IMG/VR virus record: IMGVR_UViG_3300014203_000001
Span: 64,001-128,000 of that record
DNA length: 64,000 nucleotides
Reading direction: 5' to 3' (one strand)
Source of the DNA: a virus
Lineage: Duplodnaviria; Caudoviricetes
In this document: one piece after another, positions 1-16,634 of the stretch
Layout of the letters: the number at the start of each line of letters is the position of its first letter
How positions within the stretch are numbered: the first letter of the stretch is position 1
Program-made: the position numbers and the translations under genes
Notes under the pieces: generated by a model
Told to the model about the DNA's origin: nothing
The model's input: only the letters and a program-made list of their open reading frames with translations
Databases searched by the model: none

Positions 1-1
1 T

Positions 2-334
2 ATAACTAATGACGATCTAGAAAAATTAGAAGCATTTTATACAAAATATAAAGCGTATGCTGATGCAATCGAAGTTATAATACTCCAAGATCAAAAAGAG
101 TTTGAAGAGAATGGTCCTTCTCTAGAAATTGAAAATAAAATAGATATGGAAAATATGACTCATAAAGAAGTTATCCAACACTGTAAAGAGCAATTAGAAG
201 AGATACCAACTGCAGGTAAGATATATAGAACTATTAGATCTACAGTTAATACATATATGTGTTTTACAGGTCGTCCAATGTTAGGGGAAACACAGGAAGA
301 ATTTGATGAATGGGGTGAATATAATGAAGATTGA
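2..334 (+). CDS. hypothetical protein, 5'-truncated by the window
   Basis: Frame is open from position 2 (ITNDDLEKLEAF...) through the listed 146..334 ORF to TGA. Confidence 0.75.
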   Translation: MTNDDLEKLEAFYTKYKAYADAIEVIILQDQKEFEENGPSLEIENKIDMENMTHKEVIQHCKEQLEEIPTAGKIYRTIRSTVNTYMCFTGRPMLGETQEEFDEWGEYNED

Positions 335-1862
335 GATAGGCGATGTATGGTATTTAAAATTTCCATATGATGAGAATGATGGAAGATTTAAGGACAGACC
401 TGGAGTGGTTGTAGATGAGTTACCAAATGACATATATGTTGTAGTAAAATGTACATCTAAACCTAAAAAAAGAACACCTTTTGATTACACGCTTAAAGAT
501 CCAGAAATTGCTAATTTAGCTAAAAGTGGTAACATTAGGTGCGATAACGATTTAAAAATAAAAATACGAGATTTTAGAAGAAAAAAAGGAGTTATATCTG
601 ATATTGATATGCCTGAAATAACCAGACTATATAAGGAAGCGATAGCTCAGGAAGGTCATCAATCTATGGTGCTTGAAGAGTTCTTTAGTAACGATGATGA
701 TACTTATCCAATTAACGAAGATGACCATATTGTTCCTCTCAACAATATGGTCCAGGAACAAGTTGCTAAACCTGGATATAGCTTCTTGGAAATATTAGAC
801 GAATCTGTAAACCTACAGAAGGTTTCAGAAAAGGATAAGAAGGATATAATGAATATTTATAATTCTTTATCCGAACAAGAAAAGAAATCTATGGGAGGGA
901 GATTTGCGAATTCCCCTAATATTGCTTTTAGCAAAGTATATAGAGAAGGATCAGTTCCAATGTCATTTGTTCAAGGATATGATTTTGGTAATGATGAAAT
1001 TGTAGTGGAAGTAGCATCAGCTACATATGCTAGAGGAGAAGGATATGCTTCTAAAGGAGTATATGAATTGACATCTTTTGCTAAAAGCAATGGGTATAAT
1101 AGAATAGTTTATCTAGTAAAAGAAGATAATGAAGCATCTATCACTTTGGCTGAAAGTGCTGGGTTTGAATGTGATGGTAAAGAGCGTAGTCGTTTTATCT
1201 ATGCAATGCAACTAACCAAACCAGTAAAAGAAAATATGGCTATGGGTGGAATGAATCCTATACCATCACCAACTAGAGCAATATGTATTACTCAGTATGG
1301 ATATAGAAATACTAGTTGTAAAGATGAAGTAGAAGGATATGCTATTCATAATGATATCATTACAGATAAGATTCTTACTGTAGACGAGTATGGTGTACTT
1401 AGAATTAGAGAGAATTCTTTTTTAGAAGGAAGAAATATTGCGATATATAAGTACGTAAAAGAAGATCTTAAAGGATATCATAAAATCTTGAAATCTGTAA
1501 ACAAGCAAGTTTATAGAGAATTCATATATGAAACTCTTACTGGTAAACGACTTCTATGCGACGATCAGATTATATGCGATGAATGTTTTACAGAGATATC
1601 TTTCGCTAAGATAGTCGCAGAACAGACATCTGCAATTCAAACTATAATAGATCAGTATAAGGAAATTATAGGCGAGACCGTAATTAGACTTCCTTTATTA
1701 ATCAAAGAAGATATCAATGCAGCGTCTAAATTACTAAAAGGAAATCGTACTATTAAAGTATTTGAAAATTTAAACGGATACTTTGCGGAGAATGCGTTAA
1801 CTAGACAACGAACTGGATACTATAAGAAGGTAAAAGATATTCAAATAGAGGTGATAATGTAG
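324..1862 (+). CDS. multidomain putative head protein: PemK/MazF-like domain + GNAT acetyltransferase + C-terminal unknown domain
   Basis: GGGGTG RBS then ATG 324. N-term GDVWYLKFPY..KDRPGVVV..VVVKCTS is the PemK/MazF pattern; ARGEGYAS..VKEDNEASITLAESAGF is the GNAT pattern; xxE|S/N motifs sit at domain borders. Confidence 0.75.
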   Translation: MKIEIGDVWYLKFPYDENDGRFKDRPGVVVDELPNDIYVVVKCTSKPKKRTPFDYTLKDPEIANLAKSGNIRCDNDLKIKIRDFRRKKGVISDIDMPEITRLYKEAIAQEGHQSMVLEEFFSNDDDTYPINEDDHIVPLNNMVQEQVAKPGYSFLEILDESVNLQKVSEKDKKDIMNIYNSLSEQEKKSMGGRFANSPNIAFSKVYREGSVPMSFVQGYDFGNDEIVVEVASATYARGEGYASKGVYELTSFAKSNGYNRIVYLVKEDNEASITLAESAGFECDGKERSRFIYAMQLTKPVKENMAMGGMNPIPSPTRAICITQYGYRNTSCKDEVEGYAIHNDIITDKILTVDEYGVLRIRENSFLEGRNIAIYKYVKEDLKGYHKILKSVNKQVYREFIYETLTGKRLLCDDQIICDECFTEISFAKIVAEQTSAIQTIIDQYKEIIGETVIRLPLLIKEDINAASKLLKGNRTIKVFENLNGYFAENALTRQRTGYYKKVKDIQIEVIM

Positions 1863-4540
1863 TGAAGAATATAGAGAATGATGTTATAACATTTGATAAT
1901 CTGGATGATAGAGAAACAAAAGACTGGCGAGCAATTCGAGGTATTATTCTTCTATACAGTGGATATAAGACAGAAGGAGAATTACGAAGAGATTTCGAGA
2001 ACTTTATAGGAATGCCATTAGGTGACAGAAGAGAAAGTGATTGGAAATCTATAGATCTGTATGGTAGTAACAACACAGATAGATATAATAAGATGCTATC
2101 AGTGTTCTTAAAGAACGATATAGAAAATGATGATTTATATTCTAATTACTATGCTCCTGTGAGAGAATCTGCAGATGGGAATATTAGAATAGGATTCGTT
2201 GGCTATAGTGATTCAGTATTTGATGTGAACAAAGCTATAACTATTATTGAAAAAATATTTGTAAAAATATCTAAAATGTATGATAAAAATAAAGTAGAGA
2301 TTGTATCTGGATATACTAATTTAGGTATACCTAAATTAGTATATGAAAAAGCCAATGAATTAGGTTTTAAAACTGTTGGCATTGCTTGTAAAAAAGCTAA
2401 TGAATATGATGTATTTCCTTGCGATAAAGTAATTATTAAAGGAGAAGAATGGGGAGACGAATCTGAGACTTTCCTTAATTATATAGATGCGATATATAAA
2501 ATAGGAGGAGGTAAACAATCTGAGAGTGAATTTAAAAGCATGAAAAAAATGTCTAAACCAGCTATAGAATATAGATTAGATCGTATAGGAAAGCCAGTAA
2601 AAGAATCTGCAATGGAGAGAGCAGAAGAATGGAATAATAATAGTCTTAATAAGATCATTACTAAAGCTACTTCTTTAAAAGATCTAGAAACCCAATGGGA
2701 AAGATATCAAGCTATTCCTATTCATGATAGAAATAAGCTAGATACCACATCTACTGAGATATTTGGTATTAATAATACTGATCATTATAATTCTCAGAAG
2801 AGAGATTATGTAAAGAAAGATATAGAGAATCCAAAACCAGATGTATTATATACTATTACTAAAGAAGAAGCACTGTTAGAGTATGCTTCTAATACAGATC
2901 CTATTACTTCAGCTTTAACTTGTATTAGATTACAAGAATCTGCATATCCTAACTCTAAGATATTATGCGAGAAAGCAGAGAAAGAGTTAGATGATAAAAT
3001 AAGTATGGATAATATGATGGCAATGTCTATCACTCCATATTTTACCCCATCTCAAATGGAGAAGTTAGGATTATCTGTATTAGATGTAGGCGGTATGTAT
3101 AGTAATGAACCAGACAATGTTATTATAGGAGATATATCTACTAAAGAATGGTTTCTAGAGTACAAGAACCGATTTAATGGATATGACGATACATCCTATA
3201 CTAGTCAATCCGCATGGGTAGAATCTATGAAAAAACTATACTCTGATTATGAGGATATAAAGGAATCTGGAGACATAAATAAGATAAATAGTAGAAAGCA
3301 ATCTATCTTAGATTTAGGATGGAATCCAGAAATAGATTTTAATGAGGAAACTAGAATATTAGCAACCAATCGTATAAATTCCATACTCAACGAAGAATAC
3401 TCTAGATATAGAATTATAGATATAGAACAAAGTGTTTCTCTTATGAATGAAAACTTTGTATATAACGAATCAGAAAATGGTCCTAAGATCAAACCCATCT
3501 TTGTAGTATTCTTTAATACGAAGAACTTATTCAATAAGATCGCTAGGCTTGTAGATAAATCTGTATATAGCCACGTATCTATATCATTTAATCCTTCTTT
3601 AAAAACTCTATATAGTTTTGATGCTAAGCATGGTGGATTCCATACTGAGTATCTAAAAGACTTTATAGAAGAAGGAAATGTAAAAGCTATACAAGTATTT
3701 TGTACTTTTGTAGATGAAGAAAGATATCATAAGATGAAGAATAGAATTTCTAATTTTCATAAGGATAAAGAACAACGAGGATATTCATTCCTTAATCTAA
3801 TAACTATTCCGCTAAAGATAAACTATATAAACCAATCTAAAATGGTTTGTTCTCAGTTTGTAGATAGTATGCTTAAATTAGCAGATCTGGATACTACTCA
3901 TATGGTATCTAGTATAATATCTCCTGGTAATCTGAATAGACATATTAAGAAGTTTAAAGGGGATATGTATAAGATATTTACAGGCGATCCTAAGAATTAC
4001 AATACTAATAAAGTAGGAGAGTTTATAAATAATCTAACCTCTGTTATACAAACTCATACAGAGTCTTCTGTATTAAATTCTTTTTTATCAGTAAATCCTA
4101 TTAGAGAAGAATTTGGTATTCAGTTTACTGATGATGGGGATTTGTTAATCTCTAAAGGAAAAGATATAGACTTCGAAGGTGAATATTCTAGATGTCATAT
4201 GGCATTAATGGAATATGATAAAGCTAAGAATACAGAAGCTATGAAGTACTGTATATGTAAACTATGGTATCTTAATATTATACTAGAAGAAAGAATCAAT
4301 GAGGAGAATTCTAGTAAAGATAAAGATAGAGAAAAACTAAAATCTTATCATAAAGCTAGAGCTAAGATATTGAATGATATTAAGACCTATATGAAAAGAG
4401 TACAGAGATTAGATAAAGATTTTGATATAATTAAAGAATATAACGATAGCCCATTTAATGATAAGAATATCAGAATAAGAAGATCTACTATACTATATGC
4501 TATAGAGCTAGCTAAAAGACTAATAGGAATAAAGAGGTGA
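1862..4540 (+). CDS. multidomain putative head protein with SLOG-like and permuted papain-like (YiiX-type NlpC/P60) domains
   Basis: IGFVGYS..IVSGYTNLGIP..IGGGKQSESE (SLOG); YSHVSI..YSF..MVCSQFV (His before Cys, permuted papain); internal repeat ..YG/FG-x-NNTD-x-YN..KNDIEN/KKDIEN. Confidence 0.7.
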   Translation: MKNIENDVITFDNLDDRETKDWRAIRGIILLYSGYKTEGELRRDFENFIGMPLGDRRESDWKSIDLYGSNNTDRYNKMLSVFLKNDIENDDLYSNYYAPVRESADGNIRIGFVGYSDSVFDVNKAITIIEKIFVKISKMYDKNKVEIVSGYTNLGIPKLVYEKANELGFKTVGIACKKANEYDVFPCDKVIIKGEEWGDESETFLNYIDAIYKIGGGKQSESEFKSMKKMSKPAIEYRLDRIGKPVKESAMERAEEWNNNSLNKIITKATSLKDLETQWERYQAIPIHDRNKLDTTSTEIFGINNTDHYNSQKRDYVKKDIENPKPDVLYTITKEEALLEYASNTDPITSALTCIRLQESAYPNSKILCEKAEKELDDKISMDNMMAMSITPYFTPSQMEKLGLSVLDVGGMYSNEPDNVIIGDISTKEWFLEYKNRFNGYDDTSYTSQSAWVESMKKLYSDYEDIKESGDINKINSRKQSILDLGWNPEIDFNEETRILATNRINSILNEEYSRYRIIDIEQSVSLMNENFVYNESENGPKIKPIFVVFFNTKNLFNKIARLVDKSVYSHVSISFNPSLKTLYSFDAKHGGFHTEYLKDFIEEGNVKAIQVFCTFVDEERYHKMKNRISNFHKDKEQRGYSFLNLITIPLKINYINQSKMVCSQFVDSMLKLADLDTTHMVSSIISPGNLNRHIKKFKGDMYKIFTGDPKNYNTNKVGEFINNLTSVIQTHTESSVLNSFLSVNPIREEFGIQFTDDGDLLISKGKDIDFEGEYSRCHMALMEYDKAKNTEAMKYCICKLWYLNIILEERINEENSSKDKDREKLKSYHKARAKILNDIKTYMKRVQRLDKDFDIIKEYNDSPFNDKNIRIRRSTILYAIELAKRLIGIKR

Positions 4541-4545
4541 TAAAT

Positions 4546-4620
4546 ATGATTAAGAAGATTAAAGAATGGGTGTTATCATTGTACTTACTTTTTATTTACT
4601 TTAAAAATAGTGGAAGATAA
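4546..4620 (+). CDS. 24-aa hydrophobic peptide
   Basis: GAGGTG RBS; MIKKIKEWVLSLYLLFIYFKNSGR*; lies just before a terminator hairpin. Confidence 0.45.
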   Translation: MIKKIKEWVLSLYLLFIYFKNSGR

Positions 4621-4626
4621 ATTAAT

Positions 4627-4660
4627 ATATAAGAGGTATCTATTATGATACCTCTTATAT
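4627..4660. terminator. intergenic stem-loop
   Basis: atataagaggtatc-tattat-gatacctcttatat, 14-bp stem. Confidence 0.7.
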
Positions 4661-4718
4661 TGATTCTTATAACCGAATATACAATATTGTAAAAGGATGA
4701 GAGAGGGGTTTTAATAAT

Positions 4719-5645
4719 ATGAAGAAGAAAAATAATACTGTTCCTATTGGAACCAAATTTTACAAGTATACTGAGGAAGATGAACTAGAAGTTATAAGAA
4801 TTCTTAAAGTTGGTAATTATCCTATCAATGGTAAAGTTGTGAATAATAGCTATATAGTTTCTATTGAAGGAGCTAATAGCCAAACATATAAATCAGATGA
4901 TGACCTCCATGAATATACTTTATTAAGAGCAGATGCTATATATAACTTTGCTCTTGTAGTTAATGCTGAAGATAATGTAAAGCTATGTGATGTTGTAGTC
5001 CTAATGGCTAAGAAGAATGATAAAGAACCTTATGTTATTTGTAGACAGATGATGAGTAATCTGTTTCACGAGATGTTAAATCCAGACCATGCAGCACTAG
5101 GATTGAGTTTGTCTCAAGATACTTGTCCAGCAGACATAAATATGAAATCGATGCTTATTTGTCATAAGCTAATTAAAACAGTTACGATAAATGGATACTT
5201 AGATGATACTCCAGATACTATTCTACAATTGGCTAATAGATTTACTATCCAAGCAGATAAAGTTCTAGAGAAACAAAAACAACAATTGAAGAATTCATAT
5301 GTAGGATTATGTGGTTCGACAAAAGAACTACTATTCAAGAATGGCTTCTGGGAAGACGTAGATAAAGGTTTAAATATTATTGTACTAAATGATAATATAG
5401 AAAATTGTTCCCTTAGTGGAGAACAATTAATTTATCTAGAGAACCATATCTCCTATATAATGAATGACATTCATGTTATCGAGTATGGTCATGATGTAGA
5501 CTTCACTAAAATTAAGACTGATTATATGCTAATCAGGGATCTGAATCAAAAGTTGTATTTAATAAACTACTTACGTGGTAGTTTTATAAAACAAGAACAT
5601 TTGAGTGAAGAAGAAATGCAAAAATTTACCTCTATAAAAATATAA
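4719..5645 (+). CDS. hypothetical protein
   Basis: 308-aa ORF, GAGGGG RBS, ACA-N6-TA at 4681-4691. Confidence 0.85.
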   Translation: MKKKNNTVPIGTKFYKYTEEDELEVIRILKVGNYPINGKVVNNSYIVSIEGANSQTYKSDDDLHEYTLLRADAIYNFALVVNAEDNVKLCDVVVLMAKKNDKEPYVICRQMMSNLFHEMLNPDHAALGLSLSQDTCPADINMKSMLICHKLIKTVTINGYLDDTPDTILQLANRFTIQADKVLEKQKQQLKNSYVGLCGSTKELLFKNGFWEDVDKGLNIIVLNDNIENCSLSGEQLIYLENHISYIMNDIHVIEYGHDVDFTKIKTDYMLIRDLNQKLYLINYLRGSFIKQEHLSEEEMQKFTSIKI

Positions 5646-5650
5646 TCAAG

Positions 5651-5669
5651 TATATATTATAGAGATGAA
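5651..5669 (+). promoter_or_regulatory. putative early (virion RNAP) promoter
   Basis: TATATATTAT-AGAGA-TGAA; motif occurs 10 times upstream of genes. Confidence 0.7.
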
Positions 5670-5728
5670 TAAATATGCTGGTAACTTTAATTAGGTAACA
5701 GCAAATAAAAACAAAGGGGAAATTTACA

Positions 5729-6559
5729 ATGGCTAGAAACTTTTACGAAAGAGGAAGACAAAAACAGGAGCGTTATGAAAGCACAACTAATGGAGTTGGG
5801 GTTGGAGTAACGCCTGAAGGTAAACCAGTTGATGAGACTAGAGTACCTTCAAAGATCGCAATCAAATCAATTGAAATGGAAGGAACTTTTACATCTAAGC
5901 TTATCACATCTCAAAAACTTTGTGCTATGATTAATAAAGTAATGAAAGGCGTAAGCCCAGATTATGATGGTTCCAGAATCACAATCAGTGGATTTAAAGT
6001 AATTTGTGAGTTATTCTTTGCAGAAAACCCACATGTTCAACCTCGTGAGAATCAAATCAAAATCATCCAACACCGTGACACAGCTTATGGCTCTGGTAGA
6101 TTGAAAGACTTATCTACAATGATTGATCGTCATAATAATAGAAATAGAAGTCTTTCTATGTATGAACTAACTCAAAGTGGTAAAGAAGCTCTATCTGAAT
6201 TCTTACCATATGAGTATATCATCAATCGTGAAAAAGGAATCTATGATTGGAATAAAGCTGCAGTGCAAGATGTAGAACAAACTAACTTTGCAGGTCAAAA
6301 CAAGATCCTGTTAAAAGTACAATTTGATTTACAGAAATTCTTACAAAAGCTGTATGGATTTAAAGCTAGCGATGGCTCTCGTTATATTTATGAAGTAAAT
6401 GTAATGAAACCATTAGATGCTATCAAACTTCCAAATGGTAATATTGTTGCTACCAAATGGCAGTTAAACGTCCTACAAATGGATGAGCAAAATCTTACTA
6501 CTGCTTATGAAGAAAGCGGTCTAAGCCCATTACAAAATACGTTGAATATTATCCGCTAA
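5729..6559 (+). CDS. hypothetical early protein
   Basis: 276-aa ORF with RBS, between an early promoter and a hairpin. Confidence 0.9.
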   Translation: MARNFYERGRQKQERYESTTNGVGVGVTPEGKPVDETRVPSKIAIKSIEMEGTFTSKLITSQKLCAMINKVMKGVSPDYDGSRITISGFKVICELFFAENPHVQPRENQIKIIQHRDTAYGSGRLKDLSTMIDRHNNRNRSLSMYELTQSGKEALSEFLPYEYIINREKGIYDWNKAAVQDVEQTNFAGQNKILLKVQFDLQKFLQKLYGFKASDGSRYIYEVNVMKPLDAIKLPNGNIVATKWQLNVLQMDEQNLTTAYEESGLSPLQNTLNIIR

Positions 6560-6566
6560 GAGAACA

Positions 6567-6602
6567 TATATGCAGGAGTAGTTAATTCTACTCCTGCATA
6601 TA
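6567..6602. terminator. stem-loop terminator
   Basis: tatatgcaggagtag-ttaatt-ctactcctgcatata followed by a T-rich tract. Confidence 0.75.
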
Positions 6603-6630
6603 AATTATTTTTTATGGAGGGTATATAAAT

Positions 6631-7023
6631 ATGGCTAAGGATACTAGTAATTTTAAATATACTGTAAATGAAGAGGTAGATGAGATAGTAGATGAAAAAG
6701 GTAATACTGCTATCTTATTTAGAAAGCTAGCTTGGGGTGAAGGTCAAGAGAAGTTAGAGATAAGAAAATGGTATGTTAATATTGATGGGGAAACTCCATC
6801 TAAAGGCGTTACTTTCTTAACAGAAGATGGTCCTCATAATCTAGTTCATGTATTTGCTAAGAAAGGCTTTGGTGATACAGAAACTATTCTCAATACTCTA
6901 AAAGAAAGAGATGATTTTGAAGAGGCTCTTTCTAATGTAATTGGTAAAAAGAAAGTAAAAGCTATCAAAGAACAGGATTCATCTGAGGTACAATACTATG
7001 ATCCTAAGGAAATGCTGGGGTGA
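6631..7023 (+). CDS. PC4/YdbC-like ssDNA-binding protein
   Basis: RKLAWGEGQEKLEIRKW..PSKGVTFLT resembles the YdbC/PC4 pattern lnlvsWng...k.DIR.W....gKGITLT. Confidence 0.65.
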   Translation: MAKDTSNFKYTVNEEVDEIVDEKGNTAILFRKLAWGEGQEKLEIRKWYVNIDGETPSKGVTFLTEDGPHNLVHVFAKKGFGDTETILNTLKERDDFEEALSNVIGKKKVKAIKEQDSSEVQYYDPKEMLG

Positions 7024-7029
7024 TTATAA

Positions 7030-7437
7030 ATGGCTATAGATAATGCAGACTTTGGTGGGTCTAAAGAAGGACCATTTAACCAATTTGCTTTGTGTCATTA
7101 TACAGAGAATAGCTGTAAGTATAAAGACGTAAATGGATATTGTATATTTGAGAACTGTGTTGTAGATGGAACTAATCCGCCCGCTGTATTGCTACACTAT
7201 TATGAGTGTATTATATGTAAGAATGTGGATTGCTGTACTCCAATGGATCTGAAAGCTCATATATGCACTCATTGTTTAGAAAGAATACAAGCGGCAGAAG
7301 TATTACCTCATACATGTAGATGGTGCGGAGCTTCGGTCGATACCCCACCAACTTGGATGTTCTCTGGTTTATGCGAAGAATGTTTAGGAAGATTAAAAAG
7401 AGCAGCATGGGAGCATGATTTTAATGATTTACGATGA
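7030..7437 (+). CDS. Cys-rich zinc-binding protein
   Basis: Multiple CxxC pairs (CIIC, CTHC, CRWC, CEEC). Confidence 0.75.
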   Translation: MAIDNADFGGSKEGPFNQFALCHYTENSCKYKDVNGYCIFENCVVDGTNPPAVLLHYYECIICKNVDCCTPMDLKAHICTHCLERIQAAEVLPHTCRWCGASVDTPPTWMFSGLCEECLGRLKRAAWEHDFNDLR

Positions 7438-8479
7438 TAAGACTCCAATAGAATATGTATTATATGGACAGTTTATAAAGTATAATGCATTAAAGAATCT
7501 AGTTGGTTTAGAATTTGCAAACTCAGATGCGGACGAAGTAAATATATTCATAGATCTTAATCAGATGCTTTTACCAGCATTTAGATATCTTAAGATCCAA
7601 GATTATAACGTTATAAGTTCTGCTATTATAAACTACTGTGCTCATATGAGATCTTATTTTAGAACCAGGCATAGAGTAGAATCTAATATCATATTAGTAT
7701 ATACTAGAAATATGTCTGTTAATAATACTAAGTTCTGCTCAGAGTACAATAGCCAATACAGACTTAGAATGCAATCCAACGAGAAGATAATGGAAGCGGT
7801 AGATTATAATATAGATATCTTAAAAGTTCTATGCCCATATTTACCTGATATATATCTTAAACTAGGAACAGTAGAACCATCGGTTATAATTCATGATTTA
7901 GTATTGAATGAGTTTAATAATGGCAATCCAAATGTAGTTATATCAGCATCTCAATACGCTTATCAACTACCAGCTTTTACTCCAAATACTGTAGTGTTTA
8001 GGAAGAAGTTTACTAATAAAGAAGATACTTCTTATTCTTATAATCTCATAAACAGTATCAACGCTTATATTTATGAGACAAAGAATACAGTAGTGAATGA
8101 AGTTCTAAATACAAAAGCTATTAGTTTGGTAATGGTATTGAGTGGATTGCCTAAGAGAAATATCAAAAGTTTATTCGATATTAATAAGACTCTAAAGATT
8201 ATTCAAACTATTCCAGATAGTTGTCTTGGGGATATCGACGCAATGTATGGTTATATTAAATCATACTTAGATACAACTAAGTCTAAAGCTAATCTAGATT
8301 ATAATGAATTCTCTTGTAGATTTAAAGCGATAGACTTACAATATCAATATAGTATGTATGGATATCTACCAGAGTCGAAAGAACAATCTTATTTACAAAG
8401 GTTTAGTGACCCACAGACTGTAAGAGATATCAACGATAGATATTTCAGTACTGTACCTTTGGATCTAGAGAGATTATAA
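7424..8479 (+). CDS. FEN1/T4 RNase H-like (PIN-fold) protein, catalytic motifs degenerate
   Basis: IFIDLN..TVEPSVII..VVISAS..YQL..LSGLPKRNI follow the FEN motif order. Confidence 0.5.
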   Translation: MIYDDKTPIEYVLYGQFIKYNALKNLVGLEFANSDADEVNIFIDLNQMLLPAFRYLKIQDYNVISSAIINYCAHMRSYFRTRHRVESNIILVYTRNMSVNNTKFCSEYNSQYRLRMQSNEKIMEAVDYNIDILKVLCPYLPDIYLKLGTVEPSVIIHDLVLNEFNNGNPNVVISASQYAYQLPAFTPNTVVFRKKFTNKEDTSYSYNLINSINAYIYETKNTVVNEVLNTKAISLVMVLSGLPKRNIKSLFDINKTLKIIQTIPDSCLGDIDAMYGYIKSYLDTTKSKANLDYNEFSCRFKAIDLQYQYSMYGYLPESKEQSYLQRFSDPQTVRDINDRYFSTVPLDLERL

Positions 8480-8497
8480 AAATATATGGAGGCTAAA

Positions 8498-8974
8498 ATG
8501 ATTGTTAAAGCTTTAGTACTAGACGATATATATTATAAGTATGAAGAATTTGCTAAAAATATATACAAAGCAATGTATAAGAGCGAAAAATATAATAAAC
8601 TCAAATATATTAGACTGAAGATTAACAAAGACATTGGTTGCCCTCATGGTGTTAGTTATAAAAGCACAGTTACACTATTTTTACGCCAGATAATGTTAGA
8701 CAAAGGTAATATAATAGAAGAGGATATGAAAGGGTATATTGCCTTTGTTATAGCTCATGAGTTATCGCATCAATTGCAAGATATAAATATCAATTTGTAC
8801 CATACTGATATAAAGTATCGTAATTTTATCGAAGCTTCAGCTGACGTTGATGCCGCATCGTATTTAAAAGAAAACTACACTTCACTTACTAGAATAAGTA
8901 ATTTCTCTTTAAATATAATGCTAGATCAAGAAACAGCTGCTATAAATTATTTTAAACAATCTGGTAAATTGTAA
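8498..8974 (+). CDS. HExxH zincin-like metallopeptidase
   Basis: VIAHELSHQLQ followed by EASAD; GGAGG RBS before ATG 8498. Confidence 0.6.
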   Translation: MIVKALVLDDIYYKYEEFAKNIYKAMYKSEKYNKLKYIRLKINKDIGCPHGVSYKSTVTLFLRQIMLDKGNIIEEDMKGYIAFVIAHELSHQLQDININLYHTDIKYRNFIEASADVDAASYLKENYTSLTRISNFSLNIMLDQETAAINYFKQSGKL

Positions 8975-9013
8975 AGTTTAATTTACAAAATATTATTAGG
9001 TAGGCGTAAGATA

Positions 9014-9217
9014 ATGAACGACGATGAAATACTAGAAGATATAAGAAAAAAGATAATGACAATAATACCACGCAATGCTATTTCTAATAATATTGATTTG
9101 GTAAAATACTATGCAAATGATATTGCTAGCAGATATGGGTTAGAAGTAGCATCTATTGTCGATGGGGGAAACAAAGTATTTAGGATTACTTTAGTTCCAA
9201 AAAGAATAAAAGTATAA
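9014..9217 (+). CDS. hypothetical protein
   Basis: 67-aa ORF in operon, followed by a terminator. Confidence 0.65.
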   Translation: MNDDEILEDIRKKIMTIIPRNAISNNIDLVKYYANDIASRYGLEVASIVDGGNKVFRITLVPKRIKV

Positions 9218-9229
9218 TTCAAAACATAC

Positions 9230-9255
9230 AAGGTAATAGGGAAACCTATTACCTT
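9230..9255 (+). terminator. intrinsic terminator
   Basis: aaggtaatagg-GAAA-cctattacctt plus T tract. Confidence 0.75.
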
Positions 9256-9281
9256 TATTTTTTATAAGGAGGAGATAATCA

Positions 9282-11582
9282 ATGGCTCAATATAAATATA
9301 CTATAGAAATGACATTTGTGTGTGGAGAAACTGCTAAGAAGATCGAAGCAGAAAATATAAAGAGTTTCTTTATAGATAGTGATTATGAAAAGAATATTAT
9401 GCCAGCGATGTACGCAGTATTGAATATAGACAAGAATTTCTATGATGAGATAATAAAGAGTGCTAAGATAGCTATCATAAATACTAATATATATAAGATC
9501 GCAGTTGATGATAAGACTGAAACTAAGACTCTTACTGGGTATAGAGGGGCATGTTATTATTTCGTATCTGGTGATATAAACTACAATAAAGATATTGATT
9601 ATACTGGTCCTAATGCTGGTAGGAAAGATGTATATAAAGAAGTTCATTTAGGACTTATATACAAAGAATGTGTAGAGAATAATAAGCAGACTAATAATAC
9701 TACCATTGTTAATACAACTATGCTAAATTCTGTTATGAAATACATGCAGGATAAACCATTATTATTAGAAAATTTTACATACAATGAAGTTATATCACAG
9801 CTAATTGTTCCACCTAAAGATTCTCTGTATAAAACTATCGTATTTCTAAACTCTATAAAAGTATTTTATGATACCCCTTATAGATTCTTCATAGAGCCTG
9901 GGTGTATTTATCTAATAAGTAGTTCAGGTAAAGCTGTACCTAAAGCTAAAGAAAAGTATAAGAACGTTACATTTAAAATACACGCTATAACAGATAGCAA
10001 ATCTAATAAACTTGGTATGGATGAAGATAGCGATAACAAATTATATTCAGTAGATATAAGTGTATTAGATAGCCATTACACTATAGATAACGATACATGT
10101 AAAACAATAAACACAATCAGTTCTATAGTGAATCCAGCTAAGAGTAATTCTCTAATAGCTGGGAGTTCTATACAAACATCTTTGGCTAAAATCATTAAAG
10201 TAAAGAATGCTACTTTAAATAATATAATTAAGAAAGTAGCAGATATAAAGAAGATGGTATCCTCTACCAATACATGTAAAGTTATATTAAAATCTGATAG
10301 CAAAACAACTGATGTGAATATAGCATCTGTTAATGCTAATATCGATATAGCTATACAAGCTATTAAAGATGCACCAGAACCACCAGTTGCAGGAGAGGAT
10401 GGAGTTGTTCCTCCCCAAGATCCTAATGTAAAGTATATGACTTCTACTGAGAAACAAGCAAAGATAACTGAACTTACTAAAACTAAAAAAGATTTACTAG
10501 ATAAGCAAGCTAAAATGTCAACAATGAATGATGATTTTGTTAAGTCTAGTAATAAATTTATACAAGATTTAGGAAAAACAACCACTAATATACCAGGGAT
10601 GTTAAATTGCATACACCCTATAAATATAGCAGACAATATAGCCCCATTAAAATCATTATCTGGGGTGGTAACGAAATCTGCTTCTATTAATAATAAATTT
10701 ACTATAGATAGTTTATTGCCACATTCTGTTACAGCAAATGATATTAATAGTCTTATTGCCTCTTCTCATTCCACTATATCTGGACTGGGATTGCCAGGAT
10801 TAGAAGATGTAATAACTTCTGTATCGTCTAGTGTATCCGCAATCAATAGTGCGGCTACTAGAATTAATAGTACTATCAAAACATATCAAGCTTTTCCTGC
10901 TAAACTAAGTTCTATAAGTAGCACTATATCTACTCAACTTAAATCTTTTGATAAGATTAATACGAATATCAAATCTCAGTTTATAAATAAGAAAACAGAT
11001 CTTTCTACTACTCCTAATAAAAATAATAAGAGTTCTTCTAATAAGGCAACTTCTATAGCCACTGCTATGGTTGCAGGTAAAGTATTAGGTAGTCTAAAAT
11101 CTAAAGTGTTAAATTCATCAGCTTTAGCTGAGATAACTAAAGATATAACTAAGATAAAAGATATCTCTAGTCTAGGGCAATTAGGAGTTAGTAAATTTAA
11201 TATGAATCTTAATTTAGCAGGTGGGGTTAGCACGGTTACTGGCTCTAAGATAATTAAGATTGATAACGATAATGCCAATCAGCTAAAGAATATAAAAGCT
11301 AATATGGAAAATAAATCCAATAAACTTACTATAAATAAGAATGGATTAGATCTATCAGTGTTTACTATTAATAAAGAATATATAGTAAAGAACTATGATG
11401 CTCATTCTAATAAAGATGGTAAGTTTCTACTAAATAGAAAAGTAGAAATATTCATTAGAGAAGATAAGAAGTTTGTTTTGAATACTATGCTAGAGATGCA
11501 TAAACTAGCAGATGAAAACAAAACAGCTACAAAAGCAACAGAGTTAGGTAAAGATAAAAAGACTACTGATATTAAAAAATAA
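9282..11582 (+). CDS. putative virion structural (baseplate hub-like) protein with central S/T/K-rich insertion
   Basis: 766 aa, AGGAGG RBS; beta-rich N- and C-termini around a low-complexity helical middle; next to structural genes. Confidence 0.5.
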   Translation: MAQYKYTIEMTFVCGETAKKIEAENIKSFFIDSDYEKNIMPAMYAVLNIDKNFYDEIIKSAKIAIINTNIYKIAVDDKTETKTLTGYRGACYYFVSGDINYNKDIDYTGPNAGRKDVYKEVHLGLIYKECVENNKQTNNTTIVNTTMLNSVMKYMQDKPLLLENFTYNEVISQLIVPPKDSLYKTIVFLNSIKVFYDTPYRFFIEPGCIYLISSSGKAVPKAKEKYKNVTFKIHAITDSKSNKLGMDEDSDNKLYSVDISVLDSHYTIDNDTCKTINTISSIVNPAKSNSLIAGSSIQTSLAKIIKVKNATLNNIIKKVADIKKMVSSTNTCKVILKSDSKTTDVNIASVNANIDIAIQAIKDAPEPPVAGEDGVVPPQDPNVKYMTSTEKQAKITELTKTKKDLLDKQAKMSTMNDDFVKSSNKFIQDLGKTTTNIPGMLNCIHPINIADNIAPLKSLSGVVTKSASINNKFTIDSLLPHSVTANDINSLIASSHSTISGLGLPGLEDVITSVSSSVSAINSAATRINSTIKTYQAFPAKLSSISSTISTQLKSFDKINTNIKSQFINKKTDLSTTPNKNNKSSSNKATSIATAMVAGKVLGSLKSKVLNSSALAEITKDITKIKDISSLGQLGVSKFNMNLNLAGGVSTVTGSKIIKIDNDNANQLKNIKANMENKSNKLTINKNGLDLSVFTINKEYIVKNYDAHSNKDGKFLLNRKVEIFIREDKKFVLNTMLEMHKLADENKTATKATELGKDKKTTDIKK

Positions 11583-11627: not shown

Positions 11628-13028
11628 TTATTTCATAGCTCCAAGAGCTTTCTTAATAGCATCTACTCCACCTGGGAAATTAGGATTAGTTTGTTTAGCT
11701 TTAGCATTGATCTCTCCAATAAGTTTGTTCTTTGCATTAGCATCTTTATTATTAGGATCTTCAATTTGTGCTATAGTTTTAGTATAGTAATCTTTATCTT
11801 TAGGATCTAAGTTTAGTGCAGATCTGTAATCCGATCCCGATTTGGCAACTTGAGTATCTCCATCTTTTCCTACATTAGCACTTACATGCATTCTAATTAG
11901 TTTCATATAATCATCGAATATTACATGAGCTGCAGTAAGCTTAGCTGCAAGAACAGCACCCGCATCTGTGTTATACGTTCTAATCTTCTTATCCAATTCT
12001 TCTAAATCGTCACCTTCTTGTACAGTTGGTTCTTTAGAAGTATGAACAGATTGCATATTAGCAGAAGCTTTCTGATCTCCAGTGGTAGCTGCAGCATTAC
12101 CAGATGTATTAGCAGCGGCTGCAGGGGTTTGTTTCTGAACTATTTGCATTCCATCACCTTCATTGATATATGAACCTATATAATTATCAATAGAAGACTC
12201 GCCTGTATATTCCCATTTATTAGTTGTAGTATTAATTTTCTTTGTTTTCTTTGGACCTGGGTTTCCAATTGGGTCGTTTTCACTACCAGGACCAGAGGTG
12301 GGAACGGCGTTATTGGCAGCGGCTGGAGGTGTTCCTCCTTCTGGTTTTGGTGGTTCGGTCTTTGCAGGTTCTGGATTTTTAGCCTTTTGAATATCTGCAC
12401 TAGCGTCATTGAAAGTTTTAGACAAAGTAACTTTATCTTTTTCAATAGCGGCTTTAGTCTTTTCAAAATCATGACAGTAGTTATACAAATCAGTCATATG
12501 AAGATTCTGCAGATTGGTAGTCTTTTTCTCTTCTCCACCTTCAAAGTATGCAACTGCATATCCTTTGAAGTCTTTATTAGCATCAGTGTAATCTTTTATT
12601 AGAAGAGTTTTAAAACTGATATCCGCAGAGTCTAATGGAATATCTTTCTTTACTGTACTAAATGCAGGAATAGGATTGGATACTAATCTGCGTATACCTT
12701 CATCGTATGGTCGCATTTCTAAATCTACATCTGCAGGTTTTTTATTTAAAATGATTTCTTTATACTTCTCAAGATAATCTTTTTCGCTAGCAATCATCTT
12801 GTTAGTAAACTCAACAAACTTAGCCCAGATTCTATTTAGGAATGCGATAAACTTATCCCATAAGCTTCTAATCTTATCTCCCACTGCTTCATGAATAGAA
12901 TCTAGTTTCTTATAAGAAGCTCCTTCATTAACACCAGTAATAGTTCTAATGAAACCATTCATCTTCTCATTCTCTACTGCACATTCTATTACATATTGAA
13001 AATATCTAGCATCTTCAGTATATCTCAT
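11628..13028 (-). CDS. internal head protein paralogue 4 (phiKZ-like family)
   Basis: IHE|AVGDKIRSLWDKFIAFLNRIWAKF amphipathic motif shared with the three neighbours. Confidence 0.65.
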   Translation of the reverse strand: MRYTEDARYFQYVIECAVENEKMNGFIRTITGVNEGASYKKLDSIHEAVGDKIRSLWDKFIAFLNRIWAKFVEFTNKMIASEKDYLEKYKEIILNKKPADVDLEMRPYDEGIRRLVSNPIPAFSTVKKDIPLDSADISFKTLLIKDYTDANKDFKGYAVAYFEGGEEKKTTNLQNLHMTDLYNYCHDFEKTKAAIEKDKVTLSKTFNDASADIQKAKNPEPAKTEPPKPEGGTPPAAANNAVPTSGPGSENDPIGNPGPKKTKKINTTTNKWEYTGESSIDNYIGSYINEGDGMQIVQKQTPAAAANTSGNAAATTGDQKASANMQSVHTSKEPTVQEGDDLEELDKKIRTYNTDAGAVLAAKLTAAHVIFDDYMKLIRMHVSANVGKDGDTQVAKSGSDYRSALNLDPKDKDYYTKTIAQIEDPNNKDANAKNKLIGEINAKAKQTNPNFPGGVDAIKKALGAMK

Positions 13029-13030
13029 GA

Positions 13031-14305
13031 TTATTCTACCTCCGATACATAGTTTGGAATTAATGAAAGATCTATAGATTCGTTATTCAAAGTAGATTTC
13101 AATGCATGATGTAATAGTCTATCTTTACGTTCTTTCATCGCAGGGCTATCATGCGGATCATGAACGTATTGCTTATCTAGATGATGATTCTTATCATGTT
13201 TGTCATCCGTAGGAACTGCATATGGATTATAATTATGACTAATCTCCTCATCTACTACAGCTTCATTCTTAGCAAGGATCTTCTTAAATGCTCCATATAG
13301 AATGCTCTTATCCTGCCCGTAGCAATCTTTTAACGCATCTAATTTAGCTGAAAAAGCCATCAGATGCATATTAGCAATAGTAGTGATCTCCTGAGATTTA
13401 GCTTTCATAAATAGATCATATAGAGCAATCTTATCAGAAGATGTATCACCATCTATAATATCTTCAATAGATACTACTTCTTTACCATCTTGGGTAATCT
13501 TGTTTACGCTATCTAATTTCTTCTGAATCTCATTATATTTCTTTTCTATATTATCAGAATGGCGTTGAGTAGAAGTTTTCATCTTATCATAGTTAGTAAA
13601 GAATGATAATGCCTCTGTAACGATAGCATTTGTTACACTAATCTTACTAGTAGATGAATCACCACTACGATATATCTTAAACAGCTCATCTTTGAAATCG
13701 GTTTCACTAATATTGCTTTTAGCTTTGATACAAGCTTTTCTAATATCATCCATATAAGAATTACCATTCTTTGTATCTAGGAAAGAATCGTATGCTGTTT
13801 TCATAGCATCTTTCCCTTTAGCTTTCCCACTAGCATCTTTAAAATCTGCAATAGAATCGTCTAACTTTTGTAAAGGATTGATAGATGGTACATCTTCTTC
13901 GAATTTGAATGTGTACCCTCTAATATCAAACTCATGAATAGAAGAGAACTTAGCGAGATCCCCTTTGTGTTGTTCAATATACTTATCTCTCATAAACAAT
14001 GAGTTAATTCTAACCCAGAACTTAGCTAGTAGATTCTTAAGAAATTTGATAATGGATTTGATGAACTTCTTAATCCCATCAAAGAAATCAGAGAATGATT
14101 CTCTAATAAGTATAGCATCTCCGCTAGATTCATTAATTCCTTTATATAGAGCGGCATTTAAATAAGTAAACTCTCTATTCTTATTAGACAGAAAGTCTAG
14201 GGTTTCAATAAAATAAGAATCATCATTATATGAATCAGTACTCTCTATAGTAACAATAGAAGTTTGTTCATCTAACAATGATAATGCGCTAAATAGTTTA
14301 GACAT
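13031..14305 (-). CDS. internal head protein paralogue 3
   Basis: IRE|SFSDFFDGIKKFIKSIIKFLKNLLAKF; His-rich C-terminal tail. Confidence 0.65.
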   Translation of the reverse strand: MSKLFSALSLLDEQTSIVTIESTDSYNDDSYFIETLDFLSNKNREFTYLNAALYKGINESSGDAILIRESFSDFFDGIKKFIKSIIKFLKNLLAKFWVRINSLFMRDKYIEQHKGDLAKFSSIHEFDIRGYTFKFEEDVPSINPLQKLDDSIADFKDASGKAKGKDAMKTAYDSFLDTKNGNSYMDDIRKACIKAKSNISETDFKDELFKIYRSGDSSTSKISVTNAIVTEALSFFTNYDKMKTSTQRHSDNIEKKYNEIQKKLDSVNKITQDGKEVVSIEDIIDGDTSSDKIALYDLFMKAKSQEITTIANMHLMAFSAKLDALKDCYGQDKSILYGAFKKILAKNEAVVDEEISHNYNPYAVPTDDKHDKNHHLDKQYVHDPHDSPAMKERKDRLLHHALKSTLNNESIDLSLIPNYVSEVE

Positions 14306-14330
14306 TTAATTTCCTCCTTTTATAATATAA

Positions 14331-14356
14331 CAGGGAATACCAATTGGTATTCCCTG
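14331..14356. terminator. 26-bp perfect palindrome
   Basis: cagggaataccaattggtattccctg. Confidence 0.65.
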
Positions 14357-14374
14357 CAATGTAGTTTTATTTAA

Positions 14375-15442
14375 TTATCGGAATTCTACAGAACCGAAGA
14401 TATCTTCAGAACTTCCACCGTATGACTGCCAGCTAGCAGATTCTTTAACAGAAGCACGGATTACTTGTGAAGCGAATCCTTTTGCTTGTGAAATTTCGTT
14501 AGAAATAGCAGTTACTTGAGCACCAAGATATGCTTGCTTTGCGGCTAAACAACCTTTGAATGCACTAACGATAACAGGATATGCAGCTGTTCTCTTACCA
14601 GCATCGCCATCTTTTGGATCTTTAGTTTGAGCAGTAATGCTAGTATTTTGGGCTTTTTCAGTTAACTTGATAATTTCATTAATGTCTTTCTCAAGTTGTT
14701 TATAGCTATCAGATGCATCTTTTGCTGCTTTATCGTTTCCTAATACTTTAGCCAAATATGCAAAATCTACACCATCAACTTCAGATTTTGTACTTTGCCC
14801 ATCTCTAAAATGTTCAAAAAGGGCTTTATTATATTCAGATGCGCTGTAAGATCCGCTAGTTTCTCCAAGACATGCAGAACGAAATCCTTCAATCTTATCA
14901 TCTAGTTTTTCTCTACCATCTATAATTTTTTGAGCATCAGTTGCGCTAAAATCTAACGATTGAGCAGAGACACTAAACATAGCTGCCACTGTATTCGCGA
15001 TGCCTTCCTTATTCATACTGTTTTTGCTATCAAGATGGGTAAATTTATAACCGTGGAATTTCACTTTATCTTTATCAATCTTACTGAACTTCTCAGCCAA
15101 TTCTTTCTTGTATTTATCAAAGAATGATTTACCACCTTTGAATTGAGCATCTACGCGGCTCATGAAGCTATTGAAGATACCTTTCAATTTAGCAAGAATA
15201 CTCATGAAGAATTTCTTCACTTTTTCCCAGAAAGATCTAATAGCACCTTCGTTTAATGCACATTCACCTGATTCGCGAAGTGCTTTGTTTTCATGTAGAC
15301 CAATCGTAGTCATAAGAGCATTGAAATTACTTTCAGACTCTGCTACTACAGCAAGTACTGCTTCGTGGTAGTTACTAATATAGCAAGGTACAGCTTGAAC
15401 TTCAACTGATGTACCTAATGTGCTTTCACCAAAAAAACTCAT
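14375..15442 (-). CDS. internal head protein paralogue 2
   Basis: MSFFGE start; LNE|GAIRSFWEKVKKFF. Confidence 0.7.
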   Translation of the reverse strand: MSFFGESTLGTSVEVQAVPCYISNYHEAVLAVVAESESNFNALMTTIGLHENKALRESGECALNEGAIRSFWEKVKKFFMSILAKLKGIFNSFMSRVDAQFKGGKSFFDKYKKELAEKFSKIDKDKVKFHGYKFTHLDSKNSMNKEGIANTVAAMFSVSAQSLDFSATDAQKIIDGREKLDDKIEGFRSACLGETSGSYSASEYNKALFEHFRDGQSTKSEVDGVDFAYLAKVLGNDKAAKDASDSYKQLEKDINEIIKLTEKAQNTSITAQTKDPKDGDAGKRTAAYPVIVSAFKGCLAAKQAYLGAQVTAISNEISQAKGFASQVIRASVKESASWQSYGGSSEDIFGSVEFR

Positions 15443-15457
15443 TATCTTTTCCTCCTC

Positions 15458-16570
15458 TTAATATACTGCTTCTAGAGCAGATAATACTTCATATTCAGCA
15501 GCTTCTTGTTCTACTTCAATCAATGAAGTATCTTCATGTTTCTTAGGATTGAATGCTACAATAGCAGCAGCAATTCTACGAGACTGAGCCACAGCAAATT
15601 TAATTTCAGTTAAAACAGCACTATTAGCAACACCAAGAGCTTCTTGCATAGCCTGAGCCTGCTTTTGTAAACGCGCAGCCAATTTCTGATGATTTTCAGC
15701 TTTACCACTAAATTTACCACCATCTGTTTTATCAGTATCTTTACCACTGAATTTATTACTGTAACCACCATGGGTTACATCTTTTGTACTGTCTACAGCA
15801 TAATCCGTAGCTTTACCTGCAAATTTTTCAATTTGTTTAAGGTAATTATTAAGACCTTTTTCTTGGTCTTCACCTAATTTCTTAAGTGTAGAAACTGGAT
15901 CTTTTTTGCCAGAAATATATTGAACATATTCGGCAATATTACTAGAGCTGACTTCGTGAGTAGCTTCTTCTGAATCGAAGCATTCATCATGGAAATCTTT
16001 ACGGAAAGATCCTTTACTAGCATTATTAACTTTAGGCACTACGATATCACTCAAATATTCATCCACTAAATCACTCTGAGATTTGTCGTCTGATAAATTT
16101 CCGTCTGGGCTGGCACCGTCTACATTTACTTTAATATTAGCAAAGCCAGATGTAGGTTTTGAATATTTCACTTTCAAACCATCAAGATCTTTTCCCGAGA
16201 AGATTTCTTTCTTATATTTATCAAAGAAAGCTCTACCGTCTTTACCCATCCAAGCTTCAAATTTAGCAATGAAGCCTTTAAAGATACCTTTAATTTTAGC
16301 GATAAGTTTTCTAACAAATGCTTTAACTTTTTCCCAGAAGCTAGATAAAGCACCTTCTTGCATTGCACTAACCTCTGATTCGCTAGCACCTTCTTGAACC
16401 ATTCTATGTTCTTGACGGTCAGCCATTAGAGATGCGGAAAACATATCCATATCATTTTGGAAACCTTCTACCATAAGCATTTGAGCACCAATTGTGCCGC
16501 TGTATCCTTCAGCAGCTTCTACACAAATATTGCCAATGCTGCCTATTTCGTTTTCACCGAAAAAACTCAT
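15458..16570 (-). CDS. internal head protein paralogue 1
   Basis: AGGAGG RBS gives an MSFFGE start at 16570; MQE|GALSSFWEKVKAFV. Confidence 0.7.
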   Translation of the reverse strand: MSFFGENEIGSIGNICVEAAEGYSGTIGAQMLMVEGFQNDMDMFSASLMADRQEHRMVQEGASESEVSAMQEGALSSFWEKVKAFVRKLIAKIKGIFKGFIAKFEAWMGKDGRAFFDKYKKEIFSGKDLDGLKVKYSKPTSGFANIKVNVDGASPDGNLSDDKSQSDLVDEYLSDIVVPKVNNASKGSFRKDFHDECFDSEEATHEVSSSNIAEYVQYISGKKDPVSTLKKLGEDQEKGLNNYLKQIEKFAGKATDYAVDSTKDVTHGGYSNKFSGKDTDKTDGGKFSGKAENHQKLAARLQKQAQAMQEALGVANSAVLTEIKFAVAQSRRIAAAIVAFNPKKHEDTSLIEVEQEAAEYEVLSALEAVY

Positions 16571-16634
16571 TGTATATTCCTCCTTAATAAAATTCATAAT
16601 ATTATTATTTATGGAGAATTAACCTCCATAGATT

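Follow-up and report, generated by a model that had tools for sequence, protein, structure and literature searches.

A modular gene pair of an uncultured jumbo phage with candidate prohead-protease sites at its module borders

How jumbo phages choose and load the proteins that they carry into the cell is an open question, and most head proteins of phiKZ-like phages have no known function. The idea of injected multi-domain phage effectors has already been published under the name of polyvalent proteins, the multi-domain, virion-embedded effectors that phages and conjugative elements inject (PMC5512222; also PMC7824862 and PMC9503650). A text search of the polyvalent-protein paper shows that it covers MuF and portal fusions, embedded zincin-like peptidases and autoproteolysis (PMC5512222); neither MazF nor SLOG is mentioned in the same text, and 'prohead protease' appears solely among its references. 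Here we describe two overlapping genes, A and B, at positions 324 to 4540 of a 64,000-nucleotide stretch (the window), taken from an IMG/VR phage genome (bases 64001-128000) that is complete at 245,713 bp, has ~32% G+C and carries direct terminal repeats. The pair has a modular architecture whose cargo turns over among relatives, the glutamates at its module borders are conserved position by position, and it lies among virion genes in a genome that encodes a prohead protease. With moderate confidence we regard A and B as the two halves of one modular cargo polyprotein that would be processed, packaged and injected.

Glu at P1 is the known specificity of gp21-type proteases, and their self-cleavage is known (PMC10052503). 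The SPN3US protease, gp245, recognises A-x-E and cleaves behind the Glu, with Val at P4 and a preference for Ser at P1'; it cuts long propeptides at more than one site (PMC10052503). The RNA polymerase beta subunit of 201phi2-1 loses an N-terminal propeptide (PMC5694885).

The A-B pair and its relatives

Gene A joins two predicted enzyme domains to a conserved C-terminal domain that we call the chassis. Its features are as follows (window positions; a slash in a motif marks the candidate cut).

324 to 1862, + strand: gene A, an open reading frame of 512 residues, in the order MazF, linker, GNAT, linker, C-terminal chassis
339 to 626, + strand: MazF/PemK-like endoribonuclease domain, A residues 6-101 (PF02452, 28.3 bits, cut-off 23.1; phrog_1936, E 1e-18)
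669 to 803, + strand: linker with three candidate sites, VLEE119, PINE132/D and ILDE160/S
804 to 1232, + strand: acetyltransferase module of the GNAT type, spanning A residues 161-303, with its Pfam core at 206-282
1221 to 1235, + strand: site K-P-V-K-E303/N ahead of the chassis, its Glu invariant in close homologues
1233 to 1859, + strand: chassis, the conserved 210-residue C-terminal domain of A

Gene B is translationally coupled to A, the TAG stop of A and the GTG start of B sharing one base, and it carries a further insert within a set of conserved segments.

1862 to 4540, + strand: gene B, 892 residues with a GTG start, which is backed by homologues that align from residue 1
1862 to 2167, + strand: helical N-module copy 1, B residues 1-102, ending A-P-V-R-E102/S
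2168 to 2605, + strand: SLOG-like cargo insert, B residues 103-248, bracketed by PVRE/S and PVKE/S
2606 to 2938, + strand: helical N-module copy 2, B residues 249-359, ending I-R-L-Q-E359/S
2939 to 3451, + strand: conserved helical middle domain, B residues 360-530, ending L-M-N-E530/N
3452 to 4063, + strand: permuted-papain-like domain, B residues 531-734, with His ~566 and Cys 663, followed by T-H-T-E734/S
4109 to 4537, + strand: conserved helical C-terminal domain, B residues 750-892, preceded by a nearly invariant P-I-R-E749/E

A search of 5.8 billion proteins returned 24 homologues of B and 6 of A. Loci in IMG/VR were recovered by an alignment-based search, pattern-based searches with the single proteins having given nothing. 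In every relative examined (IMG/VR and ENA loci) the two genes are adjacent and overlapping, and in all of them the pair is syntenic and sits beside head or virion genes. The genes that follow B here (window 6631-8974; ~300, 276, 130, 135, 354 and 162 residues) have counterparts of similar length and order in loci L016 and L022; the sole family match among them is phrog_26916, to the 354-residue gene.

The B homologues span 533-1067 residues and keep the core, with SLOG missing or other inserts present. Most are 610-680 residues long and have no SLOG and a single helical N-module. In one homologue (P0006) a ~330-residue transglutaminase-like (DUF553) insert stands right after TKILE/S, the equivalent of IRLQE359/S, and in two others (P0023 and P0024) GNAT and ligase-type Zn-ribbon inserts follow the papain-like domain and are bracketed by AINE/S, SVNE/A and SVNE/S. 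The insert of another (P0026) shows a Nudix-box-like motif by eye, for which Pfam gave no match.

The A homologues share their last ~210 residues, the chassis, and differ in the N-terminal part; A-like genes run from 218 residues (L021) to 1802 residues (L022), and relatives hold up to about seven modules. The shortest is chassis only and starts M-N-T-N-E/S-M-G-L-A. The longest contains, in order, a Zn-finger endonuclease, a P-loop kinase, three transglutaminase-like modules, an unknown module, NUDIX and the chassis. A close relative of the latter, L023, is >99% identical to it apart from one clean indel of 194 residues that corresponds to the P-loop kinase module, with the junctions ...MLQE/GTP...DDMFEE/NLIDE/T in L022 and ...MLQ-E/TCIDE/T in L023. 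Gene fissions coincide with the same linkers: a stand-alone Zn-finger endonuclease gene stops just past the ...INIHEEVEAIEE linker and the next open reading frame starts at the chassis site. In the phage described here, g082 (genome 62232-64334, + strand), two genes upstream of A, encodes a Zn-finger endonuclease (phrog_15137) with an extra domain of ~140 residues, and it keeps the VININE/EVEALKE/D linker that is found in relatives with the module fused to the polyprotein. Two small acidic paralogues, g083 and g084, lie between g082 and gene A.

When 1.84 billion representative proteins were scored with a chassis profile, 237 clusters reached E <= 1e-3, and 151 of them were analysed. Among the latter, 37 are chassis-only, 102 have N-terminal cargo of 96-2307 residues and 15 are A-B fusions. 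Since these 15 run from the chassis into a B-like protein, A and B form one unit that is split here. The chassis-B junction of the fusions reads ...L-K-L-E/D-S-N-L-E/D..., and in the split pair A ends ...IQIE-VIM and B starts M-K-N-I-E/N. A Pfam census of 100 cargo regions found zf-Di19 (39), DUF6582 (28), GNAT (~23), HAD (15), DUF7487 (10), NUDIX (8), P-loop kinases (8), MazF (5), nSTAND3 (5), DUF362 (4), YacG (4) and others. A distant member of 2,523 residues on a 324,695-bp ENA contig (L035, genes 1740-9888) is built of HAD, DUF362, DUF6582, a second HAD and the chassis; it adjoins a gene with a weak PhiKZ_VTX match, an open reading frame of 1,804 residues and a free-standing YAcAr-type SLOG gene.

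An earlier note on this stretch had proposed two adjacent large open reading frames with four unrelated domains, set as swappable cargo in a conserved scaffold and bracketed by short motifs ending in Glu. Both reading frames exist on the + strand (A, 324-1862; B, 1862-4540), and the motifs are correctly positioned, with ILDE/S at 804, PVKE/N at 1233, PVRE/S at 2168, PVKE/S at 2606, YNE/S at 3470 and HTE/S at ~4064. For two of the domains, MazF and GNAT, the assignment rests on scores above Pfam cut-offs, whereas SLOG falls just below its own cut-off and the papain-like domain is plausible. The comparison of orthologues that the note suggested came out as it had foreseen, with constant carrier segments and different or no cargo between conserved x-x-E sites. 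Its scaffold with swappable cargo thus stands as an architecture, except that the papain-like domain is not swappable cargo, being part of the core in most B homologues; it appears once as N-terminal cargo (P0126).

As for the individual domains, the MazF identity rests on profile matches above the curated threshold, from which an endoribonuclease function is predicted. The GNAT module is above both of its cut-offs (PF13302, 27.2 bits against 25.4; PF00583, 25.7 bits against 20.7). The SLOG segment, a putative nucleotide-binding domain, scores 24.3 bits against 25.4 for LSDAT_prok and 20.5 against 26.3 for LDcluster4 when taken alone; it is 53% identical to a stand-alone protein of Bacillus phage G, gp345 (139 residues), whose own score clears the LDcluster4 cut-off (27.4 against 26.3), and it has weak fold matches to DprA, ShosA and a Moco carrier protein. 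The insert is absent from all 21 aligned B homologues and sits exactly between the duplicated N-modules, flanked by A-P-V-R-E/S and K-P-V-K-E/S, and its insertion came together with the N-module duplication. A loop-less perfect palindrome of 34 nucleotides (two arms of 17 nucleotides; window 2311-2344) lies inside the SLOG-coding insert. The genome has ~15 perfect palindromes of 28-36 nucleotides; the others checked are intergenic, like loop-less terminator hairpins, and the one in the SLOG insert is the only one seen inside an open reading frame.

Residues 531-734 of B plausibly form a permuted-papain-like peptidase domain. The segment matches phrog_1128 (E 2.5e-10) and, by tblastn, a Fusobacterium phage 'cysteine peptidase', and a conserved His (YSHVSISF) precedes a conserved Cys (MVCSQFVD), which is the permuted order. 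Foldseek matches are weak (YiiX, 2if6, prob 0.44; 3kw0), and Pfam gave no match to the domain. In Foldseek and VIA searches with the model of whole B (892 residues), nonspecific helical resemblance to the C-terminal domain swamps the output, so that the papain-like fold could not be confirmed. A phmmer search of PDB sequences with the SLOG and papain-like segments gave nothing meaningful. The papain-like domain could provide the cell-wall or protein-cutting activity of an ejection protein.

The chassis is modelled by AlphaFold2 with a predicted local distance difference test (pLDDT) score of 90.3, and its first ~24 residues, the site included, are disordered. Its N-terminal half resembles permuted papain/NlpC-P60-LRAT folds, with which BFVD matches agree. 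The VIA Z scores are 6.9 (3kw0), 6.7 (YiiX, 2if6), 6.6 (PLAAT4), 5.6 (TseH) and 5.2 (Aichivirus 2A); the list also holds an unrelated Euglena respiratory supercomplex subunit (Z 6.4), and the next row has Z 3.6. Foldseek found no PDB match for the chassis at E <= 0.001. No conserved Cys or His was found in the chassis, and it is therefore probably a non-catalytic scaffold. A kinship between the chassis and the papain-like domain of B was considered and dropped, as hhalign gave a probability of 0.4%, that is, no relation. No Pfam family covers the chassis or the N-module, middle domain or C-terminal domain of B.

Border glutamates, head proteins and the S77 protease

The conservation of the site residues is specific to their positions. 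Within the variable 300 residues of A, invariance is confined to Met1, two residues of GNAT and the glutamates E132 and E303, the last two each belonging to an [IV]-x-E at a module border; E132 is invariant in 7/7 aligned homologues irrespective of the preceding domain. In the wider family, 77/83 sequences have Glu in the column that precedes the chassis, with I/V/L/M at P3 in 56/62 and mostly Asn at P2. Members that carry no cargo begin M-N-E-A-M-G-L-A or M-A-M-G-L-A. The starts of chassis-only proteins thus coincide with the site, and the predicted mature N-terminus would be made either by cleavage or by the start of translation. Almost all B homologues show P-[VMI]-x-E-S at the end of the N-module (VKES, MRES, MKES, PVQES, PVRES). 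In the AlphaFold2 model of whole B, E102, E248, E359 and E530 occupy coil or the ends of helices, and pLDDT is <50 in the segments that hold two of these residues.

Counts of the motif were made over a proteome of 74,896 residues. The strict form P[VIM][KRHQN]E[SNA] occurs five times in the whole proteome, and three of these are in A/B. A global enrichment of the motif at homology breakpoints (59.8% against 46.3%) was discarded as support, being strong only with redundant breakpoints counted. The case rests on position-specific conservation and not on counts; after de-duplication the breakpoint test is modest.

The genome encodes a protease of the T4 gp21 type. Its gene (genome 30809-31654) lies outside the window; within it, genome 31127-31573 on the - strand matches Peptidase_S77 (PF03420) with 46.6 bits, where the cut-off is 27, and there is a match to phrog_207, head maturation protease, with E 5e-25. 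The S77 protease is present in 4/5 related records, the fifth being a 75%-complete fragment. The same motif marks a border in the capsid protein. In this phage and four relatives, a variable N-terminal region of ~100 residues ends at the motif (~residue 103), directly before the conserved core, with V-R-E/N, I-S-E/N, V-M-E/S, V-Q-E/S and M-T-E/A, that is, [VIM]-x-E/[NSA]. This is likely a propeptide or maturation border, at which the capsid protein would be cleaved. When all proteins of the phage are ranked by enrichment of [IVLM]-x-E-[SNAG], g062 comes first (748 residues; 15 sites, p = 7e-6) and the S77 protease itself second (7 sites, p = 5e-4). The gene g062 (genome 45950-48196, - strand) adjoins the major head protein gene, and g061 (44933-45934, - strand) encodes an extremely acidic, repetitive protein; both look like scaffold or core proteins destined for degradation.

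Two further features of the window carry the motif, and A and B sit ~7 kb from the first of them, among virion genes.

11628 to 16597, - strand: four internal-head-protein-like paralogues, each with [ILM]-x-E/[GSA] directly before a conserved helix
44738 to 49192, + strand: RNA polymerase beta subunit, with a motif-rich N-terminal region of ~150 residues, a candidate propeptide

The paralogues match phiKZ_IP (PF12699) weakly, the three matches, which all lie inside the paralogue set, staying below the cut-off of 27 bits (22.1, 19.9 and 6), and they match phrog_26049, 'virion structural protein', with E 4e-9. Of the motifs in the beta subunit, five fall within the first 150 residues and five in the remaining ~1,330. 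The earlier note had named the motif in both places, ahead of the mature regions of the four paralogues and in the polymerase N-terminus, and had pointed to prohead proteases of the T4 gp21 type; the motif was found in both places, and such a protease is encoded. Its expectation that motifs are commoner at domain borders than elsewhere fits the counts of the strict form and the position-specific Glu conservation, and for the loose form the breakpoint test yields just z ~2.1-2.6. A reading frame of 4,064 residues (29334-41528, - strand) was also considered as the virion RNA polymerase and was rejected, as it carries C39-peptidase and glucosaminidase domains instead (Peptidase_C39-like, residues 3093-3208; glucosaminidase, residues 3299-3411); its probable role is that of a giant hydrolase of the cell wall, associated with the virion, or of a tail protein. 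A gene of 144 residues (genome 54300-54734) is a paralogue of its glucosaminidase part.

The genome also codes for GroEL, split multisubunit RNA polymerase genes and a major head protein (phrog_20655), and its large terminase is ~39% identical to the terminases of AR9, PBS1, BpSp and Staphylococcus phage S6. On the strength of this terminase identity, the S77 protease, the split multisubunit RNA polymerases and the head protein, we place the phage by sequence as a distant, uncultured member of the AR9/phiKZ supergroup. Its nearest terminases point to low-GC Firmicutes as the probable hosts. Against cultured phages, tblastn with the capsid protein (50,697 records), megablast with window 1-6000, and tblastn with gene A and two divergent chassis members gave no match.

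A proposed delivery route and its alternatives

From these observations we infer cleavage, packaging, ejection and roles of the cargo in the host. The carrier parts, namely the chassis and the N-modules, middle, papain-like and C-terminal domains of B, would bring the precursor into the assembling prohead, with the cargo enzymes strung before or between them on disordered linkers that carry [IVLM]-x-E and a small residue. During head maturation the S77 serine protease would cut after the linker Glu, as it would at the border between the N-terminal region and the core of the capsid protein. The freed, folded domains would be too large to exit the shell, would stay with the DNA, and would be ejected into the next host, where they would act before phage gene expression. 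Possible roles are host shut-off (MazF, GNAT) and interference with nucleotide-based defence signalling (SLOG; NUDIX and HAD in relatives). Keeping MazF in the precursor until the capsid is sealed would protect the producing cell.

Several observations weigh against this route. The loose [IVLM]-x-E is frequent in an AT-rich proteome, and after de-duplication homology breakpoints coincide with the motif only at z ~2.1-2.6. The residue at P3 is hydrophobic, as in T4, and not small as in phiKZ and SPN3US, and THTE/S is a site without a hydrophobic P3. Neither tblastn nor the chassis profile found the chassis in a cultured phage for which a virion proteome exists; the profile was scored on AR9, BpSp, Staphylococcus phage S6, phiKZ and SPN3US. 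Some cargo also exists as separate genes without a chassis (the Zn-finger endonuclease in g082, in L021 and in AR9 g233), so covalent linkage to the chassis is not always needed. Finally, N-terminal propeptides of giant phages are mostly degraded and lost (PMC10052503); because known propeptides are mostly cleared from heads, N-terminal cargo could be discarded, and its retention is argued solely from the size of the folded domains.

The frequency of the loose motif and the modest breakpoint enrichment would fit proteins that are never cut and act whole, virion-borne or not, with [IVLM]-x-E serving as a linker or as a docking motif that a protein of the head or scaffold would recognise; packaging without processing is described for polyvalent proteins, the N4 virion RNA polymerase among them (PMC5512222). 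However, a Glu stands at a set position by every module border, the borders of recent insertions included, stand-alone chassis proteins begin exactly at the site and gene fissions fall at sites, the motif is common to the capsid core border, and a Glu-specific protease family is present. We judge uncut proteins unlikely. A different division of labour, in which the polyprotein is real and is self-processed by the papain-like domain of B or the transglutaminase-like peptidases of relatives, in the capsid or after injection and with the prohead protease uninvolved, draws on the His and Cys conserved in the papain-like domain of most B homologues, on the permuted papain-like fold of the chassis, which also resembles picornavirus 2A H-box/NC proteins, on the recurrence of transglutaminase-like domains as cargo, and on the autoproteolysis proposed for polyvalent proteins (PMC5512222), RNA-virus polyproteins behaving likewise. 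Yet the B homologues P0015-P0021 have lost the papain-like His and/or Cys and mostly keep the E sites, so cutting would not depend on this domain; the chassis shows neither a conserved Cys nor a conserved His, the site persists in proteins that consist of the chassis alone or of A alone, and the motif is found at the capsid core border and is enriched in the S77 protease, Glu at P1 being the gp21-type specificity (PMC10052503). Self-processing is, in our estimate, quite improbable.

We give a still smaller chance to A and B being late cytoplasmic proteins that are not packaged, act in host manipulation or the exclusion of competitors, and lie near virion genes incidentally. Some of the same domains do occur as free-standing, presumably non-structural genes in other jumbo phages (phage G gp345, AR9 g233), but the pair is syntenic beside head or virion genes in all relatives examined and its site grammar is common to head proteins; in addition, a free late MazF would be hard to explain, as no antitoxin was noticed nearby, none having been specifically looked for.

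Beyond the processed and injected polyprotein that we favour for A and B themselves, the chassis family could represent a widespread, undescribed capsid-delivery system of AR9/phiKZ-type jumbo phages, with a dedicated carrier and a linker grammar read by the prohead protease, in which almost any enzyme could be slotted in, kept inactive in the precursor, freed only once the capsid is sealed, and injected as part of a cocktail of separate effectors. We advance this broader proposal tentatively, at slightly less than an even chance. If true, a rule of chassis plus [IVLM]-x-E linkers would spot injected effectors directly in metagenomes and would provide a catalogue of enzymes for host takeover or anti-defence in the first minute (MazF, GNAT, SLOG, NUDIX, HAD, kinases, YacG and transglutaminase-like peptidases). 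It would also explain how a phage can safely produce a toxin late, and it would be a DNA-phage counterpart of the RNA-virus polyprotein strategy and a natural template for engineered phage protein delivery; the carrier and linker could be tried for loading foreign proteins into the capsids of laboratory phages.

Comparison with described delivery systems

Full-text literature searches returned no description of cargo arrays bracketed by prohead-protease sites, and a jumbo-phage review of 2026 (PMC13282480) contains neither 'polyprotein' nor 'polyvalent' in its text. The closest likeness is to the polyvalent proteins, in which one polypeptide also holds 2-15 unrelated domains of the conflict type (GNAT, NUDIX, kinases, peptidases), is encoded among virion genes, is predicted to be packaged and injected, and has repeatedly recruited domains from stand-alone genes. 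They differ in the carrier, which here consists of the chassis and the B core in place of MuF, a portal fusion, a zincin-like MPTase, SNF2 or ParB. None of these five is found by Pfam in A/B, and the first three are absent both from the carrier segments (Pfam) and from the 25 most frequent of the 43 families in the 100 cargo regions. They differ further in that the modules here are parted by a conserved [IVLM]-x-E grammar that matches the prohead-protease site.

With IPI-III and Alt of T4, the pair would share effectors placed in the prohead core, cutting by an S77 protease after Glu in L/I-x-E and injection coupled to the DNA (PMC5512222, PMC5694885), the cutting and injection being predicted for A and B. 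T4 uses an N-terminal targeting peptide of ~10 residues on single-domain proteins, whereas here a folded C-terminal domain of 210 residues and a core of ~600 residues serve several cargo domains per precursor, and the N-termini vary. The processed ejection and inner-body proteins of phiKZ, 201phi2-1 and SPN3US, substrates of gp175 or gp245, belong to the same supergroup, with multisubunit RNA polymerases, an S77 protease and phiKZ_IP-like paralogues, and they too have long N-terminal regions, in which cuts fall at several x-x-E sites, Ser being favoured at P1' (PMC10052503, PMC5694885). In contrast to the modules described here, no enzymatic domain has been recognised in their known propeptides, which the head mostly loses, and the known P3 of phiKZ and SPN3US is small (A/S/G-x-E), where ours is I/V/L/M. 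The MuF polymorphic toxins of temperate phages (PMC5576092) are alike in combining a conserved head-associated carrier with swappable toxins thought to travel in the capsid. Their MuF carrier is N-terminal and bears one C-terminal toxin, often with an immunity gene, whereas here several cargo domains go with a C-terminal or central carrier, and no immunity gene was noticed. What is new here is a widespread carrier family together with a site grammar that would tie cargo release to head maturation.

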